This document shows positions 3,282 through 19,771 of a stretch of 20,105 bases of DNA, piece by piece (position 1 is the stretch's first letter; the number at the start of each line of letters is the position of its first letter). The notes under the pieces were generated by a model. That model had not been told where the DNA came from. It saw only the letters and a program-made list of their open reading frames with translations, and made no database searches. This stretch comes from a virus. Position numbers and translations under genes: made by a program. The stretch lies in UHGV virus genome UHGV-0364294; one strand, given 5' to 3'.

Positions 3282-3533
3282 ATGGGAAGAGATGACCCGC
3301 AATTTAATCTGCGGCTACCTTACGAATTAAAGGAAAAACTAAAACAGCGAGCCAAATCCAATGGCCGCTCTCTTAATTCAGAATTAGTTCAGATAGTGAC
3401 TGATGCTGTATCAAAGCCATCCAAAATTTCAGGCTATCGAGACGATGCGGAACGCATCGCTGATGAGCAGTCAGAGCTTGTTAAGAAGATGGTGTTTGAT
3501 ACGCTGAAGGATTTGTACAAAAAACCCACCTGA
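3282..3533 (+). CDS. mnt: Mnt repressor (ribbon-helix-helix, Arc/MetJ superfamily)
   Basis: The 83-aa product MGRDDPQFNLRLPYELKEKLKQRAKSNGRSLNSELVQIVTDAVSKPS...YRDDAERIADEQSELVKKMVFDTLKDLYKKPT is close to P22 Mnt as I recall it (MARDDPHFNFRMP...NGRSMNSELLQIVQDALSKPS...DLYKKTT). GAGG lies 8 nt upstream of the ATG. Confidence 0.9.
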   Translation: MGRDDPQFNLRLPYELKEKLKQRAKSNGRSLNSELVQIVTDAVSKPSKISGYRDDAERIADEQSELVKKMVFDTLKDLYKKPT

Positions 3534-3549
3534 AGGTGGGTTAATTTTT
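3524..3549 (+). terminator. Intrinsic terminator after mnt
   Basis: Stem ACCCACC (3524-3530), loop TGAA (contains the mnt stop), stem GGTGGGT (3535-3541), followed by TTAATTTTT. Confidence 0.6.
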
Positions 3550-3812: not shown

Positions 3813-3818
3813 TAATCA

Positions 3819-3840
3819 AGCCGGGTCACTCCGGCTTTTT
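3819..3840 (+). terminator. Intrinsic terminator (possibly bidirectional) between the convergent 3633-3812 and 3826-4191 genes
   Basis: Stem AGCCGG (3819-3824), loop GTCACT, stem CCGGCT (3831-3836), followed by TTTTT. It overlaps the 3' end of the minus-strand gene. Confidence 0.6.
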
Positions 3841-8682: not shown

Positions 8683-9141
8683 CTATCTCCCGTGATTCAG
8701 GAAGTCGATTAGTTCTTCGCGTGTGGCGCTGTAAAACGTCACGTCATCCACGCCTTTAAAGTATTTCTTGATGGTTCCTACACGATTAAGGCCAATCATT
8801 GCGCAGTACATCTGCCCGTGGCGGAATTTGCGTGCAGCGAACGATGTGACACACTGAACAGTGGTGTTAGTCAGAATGTATCGCCAGAACGCCAGCCCGA
8901 TTTCCTTGCTGAATCCACGAACCTCTGGCAGGTACATGGCGTGGCAATCAAAGGTCAAAGGCTGAATCTCCTGATAGTAAACAATGCCGCCGAACTGCCC
9001 GTGCACGTTCACCTCGAAGTAACGGCATTCAGGCTTGTAGTCGTATCCATCACCGTTGTTGCTCCCGGCAATAATGTCAGGGTGATTTCCGACTGCTTCG
9101 ATCAGGTCGATGTTTCGCGTTGGGTTGAACTGAATCATCAC
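8683..9141 (-). CDS. P22 gp14-like protein (positional homolog, virion assembly/ejection-associated)
   Basis: 152-aa ORF directly downstream of the tail needle gene (start overlaps the needle stop), upstream of the gp7-like gene, as in P22. Confidence 0.55.
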
Positions 9142-10091
9142 TGCTCCGCGATTATCTTGATGGTTGTGGCAGTAAACGCCGCCACATTTGACTGGATGGT
9201 TAACGTACTGCCATTTGTGGCAAGAAAGCCGTCTTTATCCACGCTGAAGAACGTAGCTAACAGGATGTTATCGGTTGTTGTCGCCGAGTTGCGACTGCTT
9301 ACCAGTGTGTCAGGAACAGATCCGGAAAAGGTTAGCTGCATTGACCTGTTTGCGGTTCCGCTGGGCCACGTCCCGACAATCGACAGCTTGAAGAACAGGG
9401 TTTTGTTCTCGTTGAAAACAACCATCTTGTTGTTATCAGTATCGAAGAATGGTGCCAACGTCCCGGATGACGGCGTGAGCGTTTTCAGCAGGCTAACAAG
9501 GTTGGTCGGCGCTGTTGGAATGGTTACCGATACTCCTGAGTAAACAACCTCTGATTTCTTGCGCGTGGTGGCATACTCAAGCGCAGATATTCTTGTTGAG
9601 TGATCACCAACTGTGCTTTGTAGCGTCGAAATACTTCCCTCTGCCGCTGTGAGCCTGGTATCAAGTGCGTTGATATCGGTTGTATTCTGAGTTATTCGCG
9701 CATCATGGTTTGCTAACTCAGATTCATTGGCAGCAATTCGCGTCTCGTGATCAGCCAGCTCTGTTTCGGCAGCCGTAATCCTTGTTTCATGATCTGCAAG
9801 AGTGCTTTCCGCTGCTGCGATTCTATGTTCATGATTGACGAGAGTTGCTTCAGCAGCAGCAATTCTGGATTCATGGTCTGCAAGGGTGACATCCTGCTCA
9901 TCATTCTTCACCTGTGCATCATAAGCTCCCTTCCCTGCTTCGTTGGCCTTGTTAGCCACGTTACCAACATCAGTACCCTGTGCGATAACGTACAGCAGAT
10001 ATGACTGCGAGAAGATATTGCGTGGAAGGACTGATGTGTCGAGTCGTGTAGCCTGAATGATTACCGGCTCATTGAGATTCGAATCAGCCAT
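9138..10091 (-). CDS. Tail needle (P22 gp26-like) with central coiled-coil repeats and an extended beta-rich C-terminal domain
   Basis: The real start is the ATG at 10089-10091 (TAATG overlap with the gp10-like stop). [43 protein letters not shown]...[14 protein letters not shown] matches the P22 gp26 N-terminus as I recall it. 317 aa versus about 233 aa in P22. The track ORF of 351 aa is over-extended. Confidence 0.85.
9636..9887 (-). repeat. About six imperfect tandem 42-nt repeats encoding 14-residue (two-heptad) units of the tail-needle coiled coil
   Basis: Protein repeats [14 protein letters not shown] / [14 protein letters not shown] / [14 protein letters not shown] / [14 protein letters not shown] / [14 protein letters not shown] / [14 protein letters not shown]; the 42-nt periodicity is visible in the DNA. 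Confidence 0.7.
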
Positions 10092-11509
10092 TACTCGATC
10101 CTTATCTGGCAGCCAGACAGAGTGACAGGTGACTTCGTGATAACGCGCAATTTGAAGCCGACATTTTTCCTGATGCGCCCGACTCGCTTCCACAAAACAC
10201 GCTTGTCGTAAACGAACGGTTCATTCTGCTCAATCATCTGCTCACGACCGTAATTGATGCCATCAGTGGTTGCCGAGAGGAACAGGCGGTCGGCGTACTG
10301 AGCGACCCCCGTCGATGATTCCACCTCCAGATCAAAGCATCTGGCGTTATCTGCTTTGAAGAGTGGAGTAAACAGCAGGTGTTCTTGCTGTAGCCCATAC
10401 TGGCTGCTGATGTCGAACTGCAATTTTCCGGTCACGGACTCCAGCTTATCGCCGCACGTTATCTGATTGCCTTCGTAAATGAAGTCGATAGCGCGGTACA
10501 CATCGTCATACAGGCCTGTTTTCAGCACACACCATTGCGGACCATTGGCGCTTGAAGATGCGTCGTACACAAGGACGTGACGCGAAAGATGGATAATCAG
10601 CAACTCATGAGCATCAAACCGCAACGATTCCATCACACCATCAGCCAGTTCATCAGCAGTGTAGGAGCGGAGGATTTTCTCAATGCTCGCGCTGGCGATT
10701 GGTGATACCTGACCGGAGCCGATGATGTATACAGACGGAGCACCTGTTGCCGGATTGCTGATAAACGCATAGGAATCAGCAAACGGCGTTTTGCAGTAAG
10801 TTCCGGCAATGCCTTTCTGCACCATCAGTGATGGCTGTGCGACATACAAAGCGGCACCAACGGTGGTTGCCCCAGTCAGGGAAAAATATTCAATCGTCGA
10901 TGAACCAAAGCAGACGATGAAGTCTCGCCATGTTCCGATGCCGAGGATACCGTCCGGCTGCGATTCTGCGCGATATTGTGCGCTGTAACGGTCAGGATGC
11001 GATTCGTCTTCAAGGTCAGTGATAAACCATGAATCCGTGCCGTCTTTTGACCACGCATAACGCCCACGTAAACGCGTAATGTCGCGAACCGAACCTAACT
11101 CATACTGAGTGAATCCGCTGTCTGTAGGCCAGTTTGAGACTGTTTTAACCGTTCCATCATAGCGATACTCGACCAGTTGACCATTAACGCCTACCGCCTG
11201 AGATGTTCGACCATGCGCCATTGATACGCGACCACTTCCGGCAACATCACCGACCTCGCTTTCGCCCTTATACAACTTGCCACCGCAAACGCGATAAACA
11301 GCATTCTGCGCCATGTTGTACTCGACACCGCGCGATACACCATTCACATCAGAGCGTTTGGCAATGCCAGGGAATGAGCGAAGATATCCACTGCTGTTGA
11401 GGATTTCTTTGGGGGTTGCCAGCATATTCACTGGCAGATAGTCGATATAGTCGGCGTTTCGAAAGTCTTTGCCGACACCTTTCATAAGCGGAAGTTGCTG
11501 AATCGGCAT
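10091..11509 (-). CDS. Tail accessory/hub protein, P22 gp10-like
   Basis: 472 aa (same as P22 gp10); position between the gp4-like gene and the tail needle. Confidence 0.8.
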
Positions 11510-12009
11510 TATTCGCTCCCGTTATCGCAAGGTTCCTTTCGCTGGAAGTAATTCCAACCGTTCCACTTCGCCAACTGGTTACCACTACCAACAGGCATAC
11601 GGTTTGGATAACCGGACTTACATTTAGCGGCTTTTGCTCTGTCCATTGCAGACAGTTTGACGAGTCTCTCTTTCCCGTATCTGGCAGTGGTTATAAGTTT
11701 TGCAGACGCTTCCAGCGCATAATCCGGAGCAATGCGGCAGGCAAGGTTGAAAATGACGGCATTGATAGCGTTATTTGATAAACCGTGCTCATCGCCCGGA
11801 TCTGGAGCGACATCTGCATCAGCGAAAATGTAGCCAACGTTGATACCAGGTGACACATCACCGCCAAGCCATTCAGCCATCATCATTTCAAGGTCGTTGA
11901 CGCCGTCTTCCATAGACTGCGGTTCGACATCGGTTAACGTGGCATTTGATGCCACACCGAGCTTACGTAATGCCGCAAGAACTAAATCACCCTTCGTTGT
12001 CAGGTTCAT
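11509..12009 (-). CDS. Tail accessory (head-completion) protein, P22 gp4-like
   Basis: Start at 12007-12009 with AAGGCGG 7-8 nt upstream. [33 protein letters not shown]...[14 protein letters not shown] matches P22 gp4 as I recall it. The 196-aa track ORF has an N-terminal extension with no RBS. Confidence 0.85.
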
Positions 12010-12235
12010 CTGCTGCCGCCTTAGGTTTTCGACCAGGCTTTTTACGCTGTTTTTCTTCTGGCTCTGGCTCTGGCTCTGGCTCTGGCTCTGCAACATCATT
12101 CAGAAGATTATCAGGATGTGCAAACCAGCCAGCATCCAGATATTCCTGAAGCTCTTCGGCTTTCACGATTTCAAAGTCGTATCCAACGCCTTTCCATTTC
12201 TTCATGTCGCCATGACGAAAGATCATGTGTGTCAT
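11987..12235 (-). CDS. Small hypothetical protein (82 aa) with a (EP)n linker and a basic C-terminal tail; overlaps the gp4 start by 23 nt
   Basis: ATG (MTHMIF...) preceded by GGAGA with 5-nt spacing, directly after the coat-distal hairpin. The product contains [12 protein letters not shown] followed by [11 protein letters not shown]. No homolog recognised. Confidence 0.4.
12061..12090. repeat. Perfect hexanucleotide tandem repeat (GCTCTG)x5
   Basis: Read directly from the sequence; encodes (EP)n in the small-ORF frame and (SQ)n in the gp4 frame. Confidence 0.95.
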
Positions 12236-12249
12236 GCTTGTCTCCAGAT

Positions 12250-12271
12250 AAAAAAGGGAGCCGAAGCTCCC
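12250..12271 (-). terminator. Intrinsic terminator/attenuator-like hairpin immediately downstream of the coat gene
   Basis: Minus strand reads GGGAGC-TTCG-GCTCCC followed by TTTTTT (GC-rich 6-bp stem, tetraloop, T6), 8 nt after the coat stop codon. Confidence 0.55.
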
Positions 12272-12279
12272 TCTGGTTA

Positions 12280-13575
12280 TCACGCAGTCTGGTTAGGCAG
12301 ACCAACACCAATTGCCTCTGGTCGTACAGCACATGCTGAATACCACACAGCAATACGGCACTTACCAGACAGAGTGTTGATATCACCCTGCGTTGCGAAG
12401 ATGCCGTTAACACCAATACCTGGAATGCTGAAGGAAGAAGTTTTCATGCCAGCAAACAGTTCATGGGTTACCGGAATCGGCTGAGACAGCAGGCGGATTG
12501 AGTCATCAGCCCAGAACACGTTAGCGGTGGTTGTTGCCACGTTCAGAACGTTTACCGGAGTGGTATTAGCAAGAGAGGTGTTTACGTTAGCGTAAGCCTT
12601 CTCTTCTTTTGTCAGTGACGCGTCATCCAGCGCAATCGGCTTCGGCGTGATTTCGATGTGAGTACTATCGATCACTCGGGTGATTGAGAAAGTCGCATCA
12701 TCAGTCAGCACGTTCTTCGCCATCTGAGACAGGAATTTCACACCAGTGAAGCTGATTTTGTCGCCGCGCTTAAATCCGGTGGTGGAGGATACGGTCACCG
12801 TTGCAACACGGTTGTCGACGTTCTCCTTGTTACCATCGGTATCAAGGGTGTATGCCTGCGGCTTAAACTTCTGCGCTCCAGACACAGTTACACCAGTAGC
12901 GGTTGACTTGGTAACTGCCGGAAGTTTCGGTGAGCGAAGAATTTCATCAAAGCCAGCAATCTGACGCTGAATAGTACCGTTGCGATACGCTTCTTCAGGA
13001 ACGCGACCGAAGATGTCACCATCTACCAGGTTGCGGCCTGCTTTGCGGTAATCGTCAGGATTCAGGAAGTAACTGATGCCCATATCGCGGTTTAGCTCAC
13101 GGGAGAACATCAGTCGCTCTGCATCAGACACAAAATCCCATCCAGACAGGCCAGTAGATGGACCAATTGCGCGGGTATCGTGAACAACAAGCGAGCCCAT
13201 TTCAGTTGCCTGTTTGGCAATTGCTGACTCAATGTTATTCGCCAGTTTTTTGGCGGATGCCTGGATGCGGCGACGGTAAGAACGCTCATCACGCAGGTCA
13301 TCTGCACGAAGCTCGAAGAAATCGTTATCCGGATCGCCCATGTTGCATTTCACGGAGAGTTCCAGAATCCCGGTTGCGTTGTCAGTTAAATCCCAGCCAG
13401 TCTGGGTTGGCGCTTCCTGCTCAACAGGCATCCACACGGTGTTGCTTGAACGCTGCATTGATTCTGCCGGAGGGGTGTATTTTGTCACTTTGGACGCCAT
13501 TGGCGTCAGGTTCTGGACGGTTTCGATGATTTCATCCAGAGCATATGTGACCAGTTGACCTTCATTTAATGCCAT
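12280..13575 (-). CDS. Major capsid (coat) protein, P22 gp5-like (HK97 fold)
   Basis: 431 aa; [20 protein letters not shown]...[15 protein letters not shown]...[10 protein letters not shown]...GVGLPNQTA matches the P22 coat protein as I recall it; TAATG overlap with the scaffold gene. Confidence 0.92.
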
Positions 13576-14486
13576 TATCGAATTCCTTTATTCAGTTGCG
13601 CCTTAAGCTTGCGGTACGTCTCTACATCCCCTTTGTTTGCTGCCGCTTCCATCTGCTTTTCAATCGCAGAGATATTTGCAGCAACAGCGTGTCCCTGAAT
13701 GGGTTCATCAGGTAACGGGGCTTCTGAAACAGGCTTTGCTCGAGGCTTGAGAGTTAAACGTTCTGACAGTCGAGTGAGTTCAATCAGCGCGGATTGCCCG
13801 TCCATCGCCAGCAACTGGCGTGTTTTCTCAGGATTAGCACCAAGGTGATACATGAGAGCAGCGGATTTCTCCGGGAAGAGGCGCATGATGTCGGCACCGA
13901 CTGCTGTCGGCACCAGTTGCATGAATGCATCCTCTTTCTCCTGATAGTCAGGGATATTGAGCTTTTCCGCTGCGTCGTAGTGCTTACGGGCTGCCTCGAC
14001 GTATTGCGCTGATTGCTGGGTGAACTCCTGAGTTTTGCGACCCTGCTCGGCGACAGCCTGGCTTCGTGCGTCCATAGCCTTGATCTGCCATTCACTGTTT
14101 GCCTGCTGGAAGGCAGCCAGTGCGCGGCTCTGGTCATAGTCGTACTTAGCCAGTGCATCTTCGGAAAGATAATCGTTAGGGTCTGGTTGTTTTGGTAACT
14201 CAGGGTTCACCCGCAGGTGCTCCGGCAACTCTCCACGCTTAACCGCTTCCATCTGCTGCTCAAGCTCACGCTGGCGTTTGCGTTCGATGCGGCGACGGGC
14301 AAATTCAGCATTAGTTGCCGGGTCTTGTTTTGGTTTCTCATCGTCTTTCAGGACAATCTCAAAGCCTTCTTCCTGACCTGCACTGTCGTTGGCATTATCG
14401 ACAACTAAGCCATCAGCAGATGCCGCTGCATGATTGCCGGGCAGGGTTAATTCTTCAGAAGCCTGAATGTCGGTGGTTTGGTCCAT
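13575..14486 (-). CDS. Scaffolding protein, P22 gp8-like
   Basis: 303 aa (same as P22 gp8); [46 protein letters not shown]... and the C-terminus ...[11 protein letters not shown] match P22 scaffold as I recall it. Confidence 0.9.
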
Positions 14487-14499
14487 GGTTAACTCTCTC

Positions 14500-16665
14500 T
14501 TATTGAGGTGTCTCGGCTACTCCGCCGGAGGGGATTTGAACTTGACGCATAAGATTCGCGAAATCCATGCGTTGTGAATGAGTCTGGTCTGCATCTTTAA
14601 GAAGCAGCTCAGCGTTAGCACGAGCATCTTTGCTGCGCTGTTGCTGGAATTGACCTACGAGCTTGAGGTACTCACGCAGTTCTGCCTGCTTGTCGAGGTC
14701 CATATTGTTGAAGATTTCTGCAATCTTCGCGGCGTTGAGTTGGTTTTGGGCTTCAACCTTGGCGGCTTCAACCTGAATCTGCGCCTGTTGGTTCTCTGCC
14801 TTGAGCAATTCAGCCTGACCTTGCAGAAGGATACCCTGCGCCTGAATTTGCTCTGCTGATGGCTGCTGCGGCTGCTGTTGAGCCTGCTGTACCATCTCCA
14901 TCTCTTCAGGTGTTTCTGGTTTCTTCAGCCCCATCATCACCAGTTGCTTGTTCGCGTACTCTCGCATCATCTCGACGCCTTTACCGTCAAGCAGCGTGAA
15001 GTATTGCAGCATCAGCATCTGGAACTCTGGAGTACCTTGCGGAACCTTGGTGAGCAACTCCTGAATCTCTGCGCGGTTCTGTTCCTTCATACTCTGGAAG
15101 GATGGTCCAACGTCTGTATAGCACTCATAGCGACCGCGAATGTCGTTGAGTGTGACCACATTGCCGGACTGGTAATCGACAACTTGCGCGTAGAGTTGAA
15201 CGTCTTTCTCGCTACCATCTTCAAGTGTCAGCGTTACATGGCGAGGAACGTCATAAATATCGTTGACCATTGAGGCATAAATCTCGCCATCACGTCGCAT
15301 TGCGGTAGCTAGGTTATCCTGAAACACGTATGTCTCAAGGTCTGCCCGCATGTTCAGTTGATTGACGGTATCGAAAGCGACCTGAGAGTTTGCTGCCTGC
15401 GCATCCACACCAAGACTAGCCACCTCTTTCACTGCGTTGGTGGCAGCCTCAAGCATGTAAGCGTTGGCTTGCGGCACTTCAGGGTTTTCCATGTAGGAGA
15501 TTGGGCCAATCGGCAGGTCGTTACCGTTTTCATCGGTCTTGTTCTGCAGATAGTACGGATAGTCATCATTTCCACCGTACATGTATTCGTAGCCTTCGAT
15601 TTGCTCAGGGAAGAAGGTCGGTTTCTTCTTCGGTGAACGAGCAACAATATCGGCGTTGAATGACATGATCATGTTACGAAGGCGCTGACCGTCTTTCGTC
15701 AGCCTTACCACTCCTTCGTAGCACTCCTTGTCACCAGCGAATGACCATTCGCCATACACTGGAACGATTGGAATATGCTCTCCGGCTATCTTCTCGCGGT
15801 CTTTCAGTATCTGCGTGCAGGTGATGATCGACTTATACACACGCCGACGCTTCACCTTGCGCTCTGCTACCTTAATGAATCCACGATTAGCCAGGTCGTC
15901 GATGACGTCTTTGATATCTTGCTGGTAATAGCTGACCGGCTCACCTGTCAGCGGGTCGCGGTAGATGAAGACCTTCTCTTTCTTCTCTTCGACCTCGTAA
16001 TACTCAGCGACGTAGACGACATCATTCGATACCCACGGAAACAGCCATGTATCGTTCGGATTCTGGAAAGATGGCAGCGTGTCAGGATCAATACCGTAAT
16101 CCTCTGCGAACTCTTTCCAGCCATTGCGTGACAAAGCGTTAATCACCGTGCAGTGCTTAGCGTCGCTCTTATCCATCTGCTTGCTGTTTGCGTCCCATAT
16201 GACGTGTGAGCAGGCCTCATGGATTGGCAGGCGTCGGATTACCTGATTGTTGCTTGTTGGATCGTTGTCTTCGTACTGCGTGACCAGACGCCATGCACCA
16301 ACGCCGGACTCTATCTGCTCACGAACGCCAACGTTAACGGCAATTTTTGCCGTGTTATGGCGCATATCAGTACGATACATCCCCATCAGCACATCGGCAG
16401 CATCAGGATTAGCACCGTCTTTTGGTCGGAAGAGAACGTCGATAGGGTTCCGGCGCATCTCTGCGACCAACTTCCTGACAACCGGGCGGACAACATCGAA
16501 TTGTCCGCGATACTGCAGGGTGGTGTAGTTTGATAGCCAGTCATCCCATTGCGACACTCGGCTAAAATACAGGTCATTTGTCGCCTCGGTTCTGGCTTCA
16601 TCGCTCGCCATCCAGTCTGCGTCAAACTTACACAGAATGGAATTGAGTCTGTTTTCGTCGGCCAT
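14500..16665 (-). CDS. Portal protein, P22 gp1-like
   Basis: 721 aa (P22 portal about 725 aa); extensive match to the P22 portal as I recall it, including the Q-rich C-terminal barrel region ending ...SGGVAETPQ. Confidence 0.9.
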
Positions 16666-18165
16666 TTAAGTTCTCCGTGCGATGGGCCTGATTGGGGCTG
16701 GTATCTTTTTCTCTTTTGGTTTTTTGATGTCGCGCATCATTTTTGCGAAGCGACGCATCATGTATGCATAGCGAACGGCGGATAGCACGTCGTCGTTAAG
16801 CTTGACGATCTTCCCGTTTTCATCACGGTGATAGAGGCGGAACTCCTCAAAGAATGGCTCACAGGTGTTGAATACTTTGAAGCGACCATCGAGCATCATG
16901 TCTCGCAATTCAGTGATGCCAGGCTCAACAGCATTACCGCCATCAGGCCATGTCGCATGCTCCTGCAACATCATAAATCCAGCGTCTGCATACTGCCCTT
17001 TGAGCTGCTCACCACCGCCCTTCTCATGCTGGTTTCCGTCATGAGGCCATGCGGTTGGCACTTTATGCGCCCATGATTTAACAGCTCCCCACGCCTGAAC
17101 GGCTGTCTTTTCTTTCGCCTTCCACACGCGTGAAACGTAGATTGTGTCTGCGTCCTTATCCCACCAAAGCTGAACCTGCGCCTGCGGGTGATCCCATCCG
17201 AAATCCATCCCGCCAATTACGTAGAAGTGATCAGGGCACTCAAACGGCTGACACTTAATCGTCTCTTCCGGTATCTGGAAGATTCGCCCGCTACCCATCG
17301 TAGGAATACCGCGAGCACGCGCCTCTCTCTCATGCTCAGGATAGGATGCGATGATTTGCTCTTTCTGCTCGTCGGTGTAGTGCTCAGCGTCATAGATGGT
17401 CATGTTGACCACTTTCTGCGACTTGCTTGGATTCTTCAGGAACTTGGTAACAACGTCAGACATCCCCATCAGCGGGGTAAACGTCAGAATTGAGAATTGC
17501 CCGTATTTGTTGGTACGGGTAAGACCTTCGCCATAAATGCTGTATGGTGGCTCTTCGTCAAACCACACGCCGTGGATTGTGTCACCCTGCCAGCGAGCAC
17601 GGCCTTGCGAGTATGGCTTGAAGTAGCAGATTGAAATGCCATCTTCAACGCCATCAGCCGTGTGATGCTTAACCAGAAGATGATCAACAAGGTTCGGAAA
17701 GAAAGGAGACTTCTTCCAGCTAATGATGTCCTCTTTCGGTATTGAACCGTAGCCCGGTTCATCATTCTCTTCAATACGACCGCACAGGATGCGTTGAGTC
17801 GTTTTGGTTACCGTCTCGTTTGTCTCGCCGCCAATCCAGAAGACAACAGGCTCATAGAAACGCTTACCTTTCCACTCACCGCCATATTTACCATCAGCAG
17901 GATAGCCTTTTGTGCCCGGATAACGCCCTGTAAGGTGAAACGCGACTTCAGCAGCACCAGTAAATGACTTACCAAGCTGGTTACCAGCCATAAAACATCG
18001 CTCTGGATAGTCATGCCCGGCGTCGATGAACTCACGCTGTTTGCTGTATGGCGTAAATTCATATAGCAGGTGTGTGTTACGGTAGTTCTCTTCTTCTTCG
18101 AGTAGCTCGAGCAATTCGATTTGCTCTTCGTCGCTCAGGTTATCAAGAATCGCGTCCAGTTCCAC
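16666..18165 (-). CDS. Terminase large subunit, P22 gp2-like
   Basis: 499 aa; [37 protein letters not shown]... matches P22 TerL as I recall it; overlaps the small-terminase gene by 23 nt. Confidence 0.93.
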
Positions 18166-18637
18166 GGTTGAATAGCTCCTTGATACGAGATCGTCGCTTA
18201 TCGCGATCTCCCTTATCAGGTGTCACGTCTTCAACTTGCGACTGCTCTTTGAGGCCCAAATCACGGGCGATGATGTTAGCGTTGAGAAGGTCAGCGGCTG
18301 CGCCAGAGAATTTCTGGTCGTAGATGATGTCTTCCGCTCGTGATGTGACGTCAGAAAAACCTTCCATTGACCGGAAGGTCCCCCATGTTTGCCTGGTGAT
18401 ATCAAGGAAGGTACACAATCCTGAAATAGTCATGGCTCGCATCTTAGGGACATTAGCCTTAATTATTTCTCCCTGATATGAAAATACCTTACCCTCCCAT
18501 AGCGGGTTATCATCAGCCCACTCGAAGTATTCACAACAAGCAGCCCACAGCGCCTCAGGCGATTCGAATTTAGGGTTTCGCCCATGACTACTGCGGGCCT
18601 CCCAAAATCGGTTGCCCTTTGGTGCTGCCATATTCAT
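18143..18637 (-). CDS. Terminase small subunit, P22 gp3-like
   Basis: [40 protein letters not shown]...[24 protein letters not shown] matches P22 gp3 as I recall it; the start may be the ATG at 18637 or at 18631. Confidence 0.9.
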
Positions 18638-19012: not shown

Positions 19013-19393
19013 CTACTGTTCGCTTAGCTTCTGCTTCAGCAAGTAACCTTCGAGCATCCAGATTTTGTTTACAGCATTTTGCCGGGCAATCTTCCGACCA
19101 ATTTCTGCATCAAAGTTTTCCGTGCTTGCACAGGCACTCTCTCCGGTGACGGTGAAGCCATTCTTCAGCACCAGTACGCAGAAAGTGAGCAACTTCAATG
19201 GTGATAAATCACGATCGCCTTCTTCTGGTTTTTCCCTGCCACAATATTCGTTGCTGGAAATGGCACCATTACGTCCATCATAAGCAGTAAAGTAATGCTC
19301 GCTTTTAATCACGTCTTCGATGTGCTGCGGAGTGATTCGCGGTGCCGTTTTGCCTTTCTCAACGATTTCTTTTTCGATTTGCTGGTCGTTCAT
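19013..19393 (-). CDS. Conserved phage protein, likely Phage_gp49_66 (N4 gp49 / Sf6 gp66) family; function unknown
   Basis: 126 aa with a HYFTAYDG...LTFCVLVLKNGFTVTGESACASTENFDAEIGRKIARQNA pattern that I recall as characteristic of this family. Located between the lysis and terminase genes. Confidence 0.55.
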   Translation of the reverse strand: MNDQQIEKEIVEKGKTAPRITPQHIEDVIKSEHYFTAYDGRNGAISSNEYCGREKPEEGDRDLSPLKLLTFCVLVLKNGFTVTGESACASTENFDAEIGRKIARQNAVNKIWMLEGYLLKQKLSEQ

Positions 19394-19771
19394 AATTATG
19401 ACCCTGTGGAGTGGTTGCTTGATTAGGATGTCTTTCCATCAGTCCGCCACCACAAAGAATCTTTTTTGCCATCAGGCAGGAGGTTCATCTTTCAGTGGCT
19501 GCCAGTGTTATTTCCCCACTTACTGGCTTGGGTTGTTTCGCGGTACTGCCGTAACTGGTTGCCCAGAATAAATTCCGGTTTCATTATCAAGCCCACCCGT
19601 AGATAGGCTTTGTAATGAACCGGCTCTTATCTCAACGCCGCCCCTTACCGCGCGCCATATGCTTAACTTCAAGCATCAGCAATGAGATGTTTAATCTGGA
19701 TTCACTCCAGAAGTGATCACCACCCTGTCTACAGAGCCAGATGTGAAGGATGATGAGTAAAATTATCGCTA

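Follow-up and report, generated by a model that had tools for sequence, protein, structure and literature searches.

A conserved hairpin with terminator architecture directly after the coat gene of a P22-like phage late operon

The late operon of a P22-like phage has to supply proteins in very different amounts, and this locus raises the question of why a strong terminator-like hairpin should lie directly after the coat gene when the genes for head completion, the tail needle and injection still have to be transcribed beyond it. The 20,105-nt stretch of DNA analyzed here (UHGV-0364294, hereafter the window) comes from a P22-like (Lederbergvirus) E. coli phage or prophage and represents its late region, with virion and lysis genes. 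Its late genes are on the minus strand and their identities were assigned from PHROG scans (Table 1). Among sequenced phages, Louie, HZ41, Dewey, IME10, and APC_JM3.2 are nearest, with 95-98% DNA identity around the site, and 217 of 5426 complete genomes of E. coli contain the segment comprising coat gene and hairpin.

The hairpin and its place in the late operon

The coat protein encoded in the window is 73% identical to that of P22. The start of the gp4 homolog, which is 99% identical to IME10 gp4, was set at ATG 12009 because the phrog_637 match begins at residue 31 of the long ORF. The needle, at about 317 aa, is of the long, knob-bearing type and differs from the 233-aa type of P22 gp26.

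Table 1. Features of the window that bear on the post-coat hairpin, with neighboring late genes
Feature	Position	Strand	Basis or remark
Rz	window starts inside gene, partial	(-)	PHROG scan
Small terminase	18637..18143	(-)	PHROG scan
Large terminase	after small terminase	(-)	PHROG scan
Portal	16665..14500	(-)	PHROG scan
Scaffold	14486..13575	(-)	PHROG scan
Major coat (P22 gp5 homolog, 431 aa)	12280..13575	(-)	major head protein phrog_283, E = 2e-111
Coat stop TGA	12282-12280	(-)	sequence
Second in-frame stop TAA, adjoining coat TGA	12277..12279	(-)	sequence
Extended hairpin, 9 pairs via AGA/UUU	12253..12274	(-)	AGAGGGAGC/GCUCCCUUU
Core stem GGGAGC / GCUCCC	12271-12266 / 12261-12256	(-)	sequence, fold
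C(UUCG)G tetraloop	loop 12265-12262	(-)	sequence
U6 tract, directly 3' of G+C stem core	12250..12255	(-)	sequence
Shine-Dalgarno GGAG of next gene	12242..12245	(-)	6 nt before ATG 12235
82-aa ORF, phrog_1175	11987..12235, ATG 12235	(-)	PHROG; first gene past hairpin
gp4 homolog (head-tail adaptor Ad3, 166 aa)	11509..12009	(-)	phrog_637, E = 1e-66
Head-closure gp10	after gp4	(-)	PHROG scan
Needle with knob domain	9138-10091	(-)	PHROG 'tail needle knob'
Counterparts of P22 genes 14, 7, 20, 16	further downstream	(-)	ORF length and gene order only
Tailspike, 712 aa	further downstream than gene 16 position		

Read along the minus strand, the order of elements is TGA TAA CCAGA GGGAGC UUCG GCUCCC UUUUUU AUCU GGAG ACAAGC AUG, the last being the start codon at 12235. 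The initial annotation had placed the hairpin and its T tract at 12250-12271, on the coding strand of the late operon and 8 nt after the coat stop, and the sequence agrees with this exactly: the core stem starts 8 nt past the coat TGA. The core has 6 bp, of which five are G-C pairs, and a 4-nt loop, within the roughly 5-14 bp and 3-8 nt expected of the G+C-rich stem and the loop of a Rho-independent terminator. Its predicted energy is -10.8 kcal/mol, that of the extended stem is -14.4 kcal/mol, and the 50-nt context folds at -18.0 kcal/mol (z = -2.7), with 2 of 200 shuffles folding as well.

The U tract is likewise of the kind found in intrinsic terminators. Its six uridines give a tail score of 5.36, against a background of 2.00 ± 0.51 on the sense strand of the operon, where 0.01% of positions reach that value; the score is TransTermHP-style and was computed with a reconstructed formula. 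While terminator-like matches across the whole window are not enriched (26 vs. 18.8 ± 4.3 expected), this hairpin (nine pairs, five of them G-C, 4-nt loop) is the best sense-strand terminator candidate, and between 4725 and 18637 it is the sole sense-strand site with at least five G-C pairs. The earlier description of a strong terminator-like hairpin, GGGAGC-TTCG-GCTCCC followed by T6, is confirmed.

On the plus strand the stem is followed by TCTGGTTATC, without a T run, and the element is therefore unidirectional. For the same reason we rejected a bidirectional terminator of the kind annotated on both strands in phage L. Sequestration of the Shine-Dalgarno sequence by an outer helix was also considered and gained no support, since the GGAG is unpaired in the predicted fold and the CCAGA/UCUGG complementarity is not conserved. 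A site for RNase III was discarded as well, as that enzyme needs a far longer stem than 6-9 bp. A scan of the whole window against Rfam 15 gave no matches at the gathering score.

The hairpin occupies a gap of 44 nt (12279-12236). In the 13.9-kb block of 13 genes from the small terminase to gp16, every other junction in the ORF table is an overlap or measures at most 13 nt. A restart promoter 3' of the hairpin was sought and only weak matches (9 of 12 positions) were found, fewer than in shuffled sequence. Similarly, no strong internal promoter was found in the window, which has 19 promoter-like sites, all weak, compared with 27.6 expected. With nothing promoter-like to restart transcription, polymerase has to pass the hairpin for gp4, gp10, the needle, and the injection proteins to be made. 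The initial annotation had assumed that the genes downstream must still be transcribed, and the operon does continue in this way; its picture is to be amended in that the next gene is the 82-aa ORF and not gp4. The latter heads the series of low-copy genes for head completion and the tail whose expression requires read-through.

The 82-aa ORF overlaps the gp4 start by 23 nt, and its counterpart is recorded in APC_JM3.2 as a hypothetical protein. It contains a perfect hexanucleotide tandem repeat of 5.7 copies (12057-12090) that encodes (EP)5, and the length of the repeat region differs between phages, being 18 nt longer in IME10 and APC_JM3.2 and 6 nt longer in Dewey. The N-terminus, M-x-x-M-I-F-R-x-G...K-x-W, recurs at the start of the first post-hairpin gene of most P22-like phages, among them phage L orf186, which has a Pfam WDGH domain, and Sf101 gp06, annotated as a 'virion structural protein'.

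Several other hairpins are present in the window. Two strong ones, at 3523-3542 and 3818-3837 (eight pairs, five of them G-C, in each), lie between gp16 and the tailspike and flank an Arc/Mnt-like gene (3282-3533, plus strand) and ORFs of unknown function on both strands. The first is terminator-like on both strands, with T-rich tails, and the second has a T run on the plus strand only. This interval is the 'ant moron' region, which presumably modulates read-through into the tailspike gene in P22. Elsewhere, a gap of about 380 nt on the minus strand (19394-19771) separates the Rz-like spanin from the next ORF of the late operon (phrog_322) and holds only short ORFs, together with several terminator-like hairpins of the plus strand (19322-19345, 19462-19483).

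The same element in P22-like phages and more distant relatives

The post-coat hairpin is already known, as it is annotated as a putative terminator in the reference genomes of Sf6, HK620, P22, and L, and almost all P22-like and lambda-like phages have it. In Sf6 (NC_005344, 6147..6173) a stem-loop is annotated as a likely transcription terminator, 't coat', and in HK620 (AF335538, 25827..25853) 'tGP5' is described as a consensus termination sequence after the major capsid transcript; both elements read AAGGGGC-UUAC-GCCCCUU-UUAUGUUUU. The same element of phage L (MW013503, 6356..6392; GGGGC-UUCG-GCCCC) is annotated 'terminator', and that of P22 (BK000583, 6102..6119; GGGGC-UGCG-GCCCC-UUUCUUU) is a putative 'stem_loop' whose location is likened to that of the HK97 and lambda stem-loops. 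All four lie a few nucleotides past the coat stop and ahead of a small ORF that precedes gp4, and all have a G+C stem of 5-7 bp that is close in sequence to that of the window, a tetraloop, and a T-rich tail. The order scaffold-coat-(hairpin)-82-aa ORF-gp4-gp10-needle places the hairpin of the window where 't coat' and 'tGP5' are annotated. It differs from the P22 element in that the lineage of the window has one extra A-U stem pair and an unbroken U6, which on paper make it a somewhat stronger terminator than that of P22. The next ORF also differs, being the 82-aa phrog_1175 version in the window, orf69 in P22, and orf186 in phage L.

The element is also carried by APSE-3 and a Vibrio P22-like phage. 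Two apparent exceptions, Proteus phage Brookers and Pseudomonas phage AH02, with annotated gaps of 7 and 15 nt, were rejected as such: Brookers carries GGGAGC-UUCG-GCUCCC-U7 and AH02 carries GGGGCC-GAAA-GGCCCC-UUUCUUUU. The element appeared to be absent because the start of the next gene had been annotated too far upstream. The annotated starts of gp6 in both phages lie upstream of or inside the hairpin, and the true starts are probably the ATGs after the GGAG just past the T tract.

In 80 IMG/VR relatives with a coat identity of at least 99%, the 12 stem positions do not vary, while loop, U tract, and flanks change occasionally. Two other comparative scans yielded only relatives at 98% identity or above. 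The distant set was drawn from one genome per bacterial species, scanned by coat-protein alignment, which gave 49 distinct loci, 44 of them readable past the coat stop. These loci represent Enterobacterales, Pseudomonadales, Burkholderiales, and further lineages, their coat identities range from 98% down to 24%, and nearly all have a G+C hairpin 5-25 nt past the coat stop.

Under fixed criteria (at least five pairs, at least four G-C pairs, at least five T in eight, and no more than 70 nt from the coat stop), the hairpin and T-rich tail were found in 34 of 41 species-level loci, compared with 3 of 1515 control windows drawn from the same loci and strand. Most of the seven loci that fell short (L265, L267, L282, L284, L290, L292, and L298) keep the hairpin and have a poor T tail; a hairpin is present in at least 40 of the 41. 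When 294 loci were reduced to 89 distinct post-coat sequences, 87 had a hairpin, and 62 of these 87 variants had a UUCG loop in the sense orientation. Of the 8 nt that follow the G+C core in the relatives, 6.2 are T on average, against a T background of 22%.

The pairing itself is also retained. In 45 distinct stem-loops aligned on the loop, 96.7% of cells are paired, a fraction that is biased upwards because the alignment was anchored on preselected hairpins. Four of the six stem pairs change on both sides in distant relatives (for example, pair 3 from G-C to A-U, and pair 6 among A-U, G-C, and U-A), and the covariation score was reached by none of 500 shuffles. Retention with two-sided changes at most stem pairs is what we expect of a P22-like post-coat terminator.

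These comparisons bear on the idea that the hairpin is functionless, or is a palindrome acting at the DNA level as a protein-binding site or a recombination joint between modules. The site does coincide with a mosaic (recombination) boundary: in 17 of the 80 close relatives (L009-L011, L028, L032, L034, L066, L075, and others), otherwise nearly identical and with coat genes at least 99% alike, a different version of the ORF (MSVMIFQAGG...) stands directly after the T tract. However, non-coding spacers make terminators at module boundaries an expected by-product. Moreover, a DNA palindrome would hold neither the loop as UUCG over CGAA nor a one-sided T tract; the single loop orientation and the one-sided U tract point to a function exerted by the sense RNA. 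The ratio of loci to control windows and the compensatory changes exclude a chance origin. We therefore consider both ideas effectively excluded, and the comparative sequence data support the post-coat hairpin being a selected, strand-specific element at the RNA level with the full architecture of an intrinsic terminator.

One divergent variant is that of L190, an IMG/VR genome with a P22-type coat, in which the coat stop is followed by GGGGC-TTCG-GCCC-AAAAAATATTT. Its 3' arm is shortened and an A tract replaces the T tract; the sequence may have been rearranged locally or misassembled, or the terminator may have been lost naturally.

Analogues in lambda, HK97, T7, and T4

Elements of the same placement and form occur inside the Q-antiterminated late operons of lambda and HK97. 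In lambda the 41-nt gap between E and FI contains UGGCCC-UUCG-GGGCCA-UUGUUUCUCU, and HK97 has putative terminators behind both its major capsid gene gp5 and its major tail gene, its hairpin reading GGGCGGG-GAAA-CCCGCCC-UUUU. The flanking genes are unrelated, the capsid genes being of different families, and the likeness to lambda and HK97 is therefore analogous or convergent and not demonstrably homologous. With equivalents annotated in HK97 as well as in Sf6, HK620, L, and P22, the hairpin offers nothing new as a discovery, and the tone of the initial annotation, which had treated it as more unusual than it is, has to be adjusted; the interpretation given there matches the published expert reading of a putative terminator.

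In T7 the single terminator, the leaky T-phi, lies at the end of the major-capsid gene 10, lower transcript abundance is expected downstream of it, and simulations reproduce the drop (PMC6938266, PMC9157156). The likeness to the window is that T-phi stands directly after the structural gene needed most, and essential downstream genes rely on read-through. Unlike the hairpin of the window, however, T-phi acts on T7 RNA polymerase and not on antiterminator-modified host polymerase, and its partial efficiency has been measured, whereas for the window partial efficiency is inferred. As to the loop, C(UUCG)G hairpins are reportedly found in intercistronic regions of phage T4 and in E. coli intrinsic terminators, and are said to have been described there by Tuerk et al. 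in 1988 and d'Aubenton Carafa et al. in 1990. They share with our element the extra-stable tetraloop, the C-G closing pair, and a short, G+C intergenic stem; C(UUCG)G is a general RNA motif and not a family of common descent, so this resemblance says nothing on membership.

Proposed roles in termination, read-through, and mRNA stability

The hairpin adjoins the gene of highest copy number and lies in the one intergenic gap of appreciable size within the structural block. Our preferred reading, which we hold to be probable with some reserve, is that it is a putative intrinsic terminator, mostly read through under Q, whose residual termination and 3' protection favor coat and scaffold mRNA. The late mRNA would fold into a G+C hairpin of 6-9 bp, capped by C(UUCG)G and followed by U6, at which unmodified host RNA polymerase would stop. 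During lytic growth, polymerase with a phage Q-type antiterminator would mostly read through, and this would allow the 82-aa ORF, gp4, gp10, the needle, and the injection genes still to be expressed. The fraction of transcripts ending at the hairpin would raise coat and scaffold mRNA over that of the low-copy genes. In addition, read-through transcripts may be cut downstream and trimmed back to the hairpin, which would block 3'-to-5' exonucleases.

The setting of the operon is in keeping with a role for Q, as Q antitermination activates the late operons of lambdoid phages and P22 gp23 has lambda Q specificity (PMC2629481). The window begins in Rz and so does not include Q or the late promoter; in IME10 (96.5% identical) a lambda-like Q lies upstream of S-R-Rz-3-2-1-8-5. 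Q-modified polymerase is highly terminator-resistant, and the terminated fraction in lytic growth may consequently be negligible. A search of the literature on P22, BTP1, and lambda transcriptomics, Term-seq, and ONT-cappable-seq returned no 3'-end, read-through, or half-life data for post-coat hairpins in lambdoid or P22-like phages, including P22, Sf6, and lambda. The initial annotation had proposed either a leaky terminator or attenuator, or a stabilizing hairpin. This proposal is supported in part: the sequences establish the anatomy, strand specificity, position, and covarying conservation of the element, and termination, read-through, stabilization, and the effect on stoichiometry are inferred.

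It is somewhat unlikely that practically all late polymerases read through and that the hairpin is purely an element of mRNA stability or processing. In that case an endonucleolytic cut in the U-rich segment would leave the hairpin as a 3' cap shielding the scaffold-coat RNA from PNPase and RNase II, and the downstream segment would decay faster. This would fit with Q-antiterminated late transcription, with a C(UUCG)G loop that gives a short stem maximal stability, and with a hairpin that is better conserved than the U tract, seven loci having poor tails. Indeed, the retention of the hairpin at loci with poor T tails indicates that termination may not be the selected activity everywhere. However, a pure stabilizer needs no U tract, yet the U tract is conserved and strongly enriched in T, which favors the terminator reading. 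It is also conceivable that selection maintains the T-rich stretch because its A/U-rich RNA enhances translation of the following gene.

An intrinsic terminator might alternatively serve as a safety device, or insulator, against polymerases without Q in lysogens or early infection, blocking leakage from the late promoter or starts inside the capsid genes. The head-completion, needle, and injection genes would thereby be kept silent, with little role for the hairpin in lytic stoichiometry. By its architecture the hairpin should be able to stop unmodified polymerase, and in BTP1, a P22-like prophage, four coding-strand promoters have been mapped within the capsid cluster and a low level of late-gene signal is seen in cultures of lysogens (PMC7067206). 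In the window, on the other hand, the promoter-like sites are all weak and fewer than expected. Insulation also fails to explain why the element always stands exactly after the major capsid gene, or why HK97 has similar elements behind its major capsid and major tail genes and T7 behind gene 10, and we regard it as quite unlikely.

The position of the hairpin suggests one further mechanism. The 5' arm begins 5-8 nt past the coat stop in the window, and in most relatives it is 6-11 nt from the first base of the coat stop codon, so near that a ribosome terminating on coat mRNA would occlude the hairpin. The hairpin might then be a conditional terminator coupled to translation, or likewise the 3' end of a processed scaffold-coat mRNA that serves the post-transcriptional autoregulation of the P22 scaffolding protein; we rate these proposals as very unlikely. 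If it were coupled to translation, the ratio of coat to tail-gene products would be tuned by how closely coat translation trails the polymerase.

The post-coat hairpin is real, functional-looking, and strongly conserved, yet ordinary. As a mostly read-through terminator it would represent a textbook-style phage solution to obtaining unequal output from one long operon, in which coat and scaffold amount to hundreds of copies per virion vs. 3-12 of gp4, gp10, and the needle. The locus may also provide a simple test case for the respective shares of leaky termination and 3'-hairpin protection under Q antitermination.
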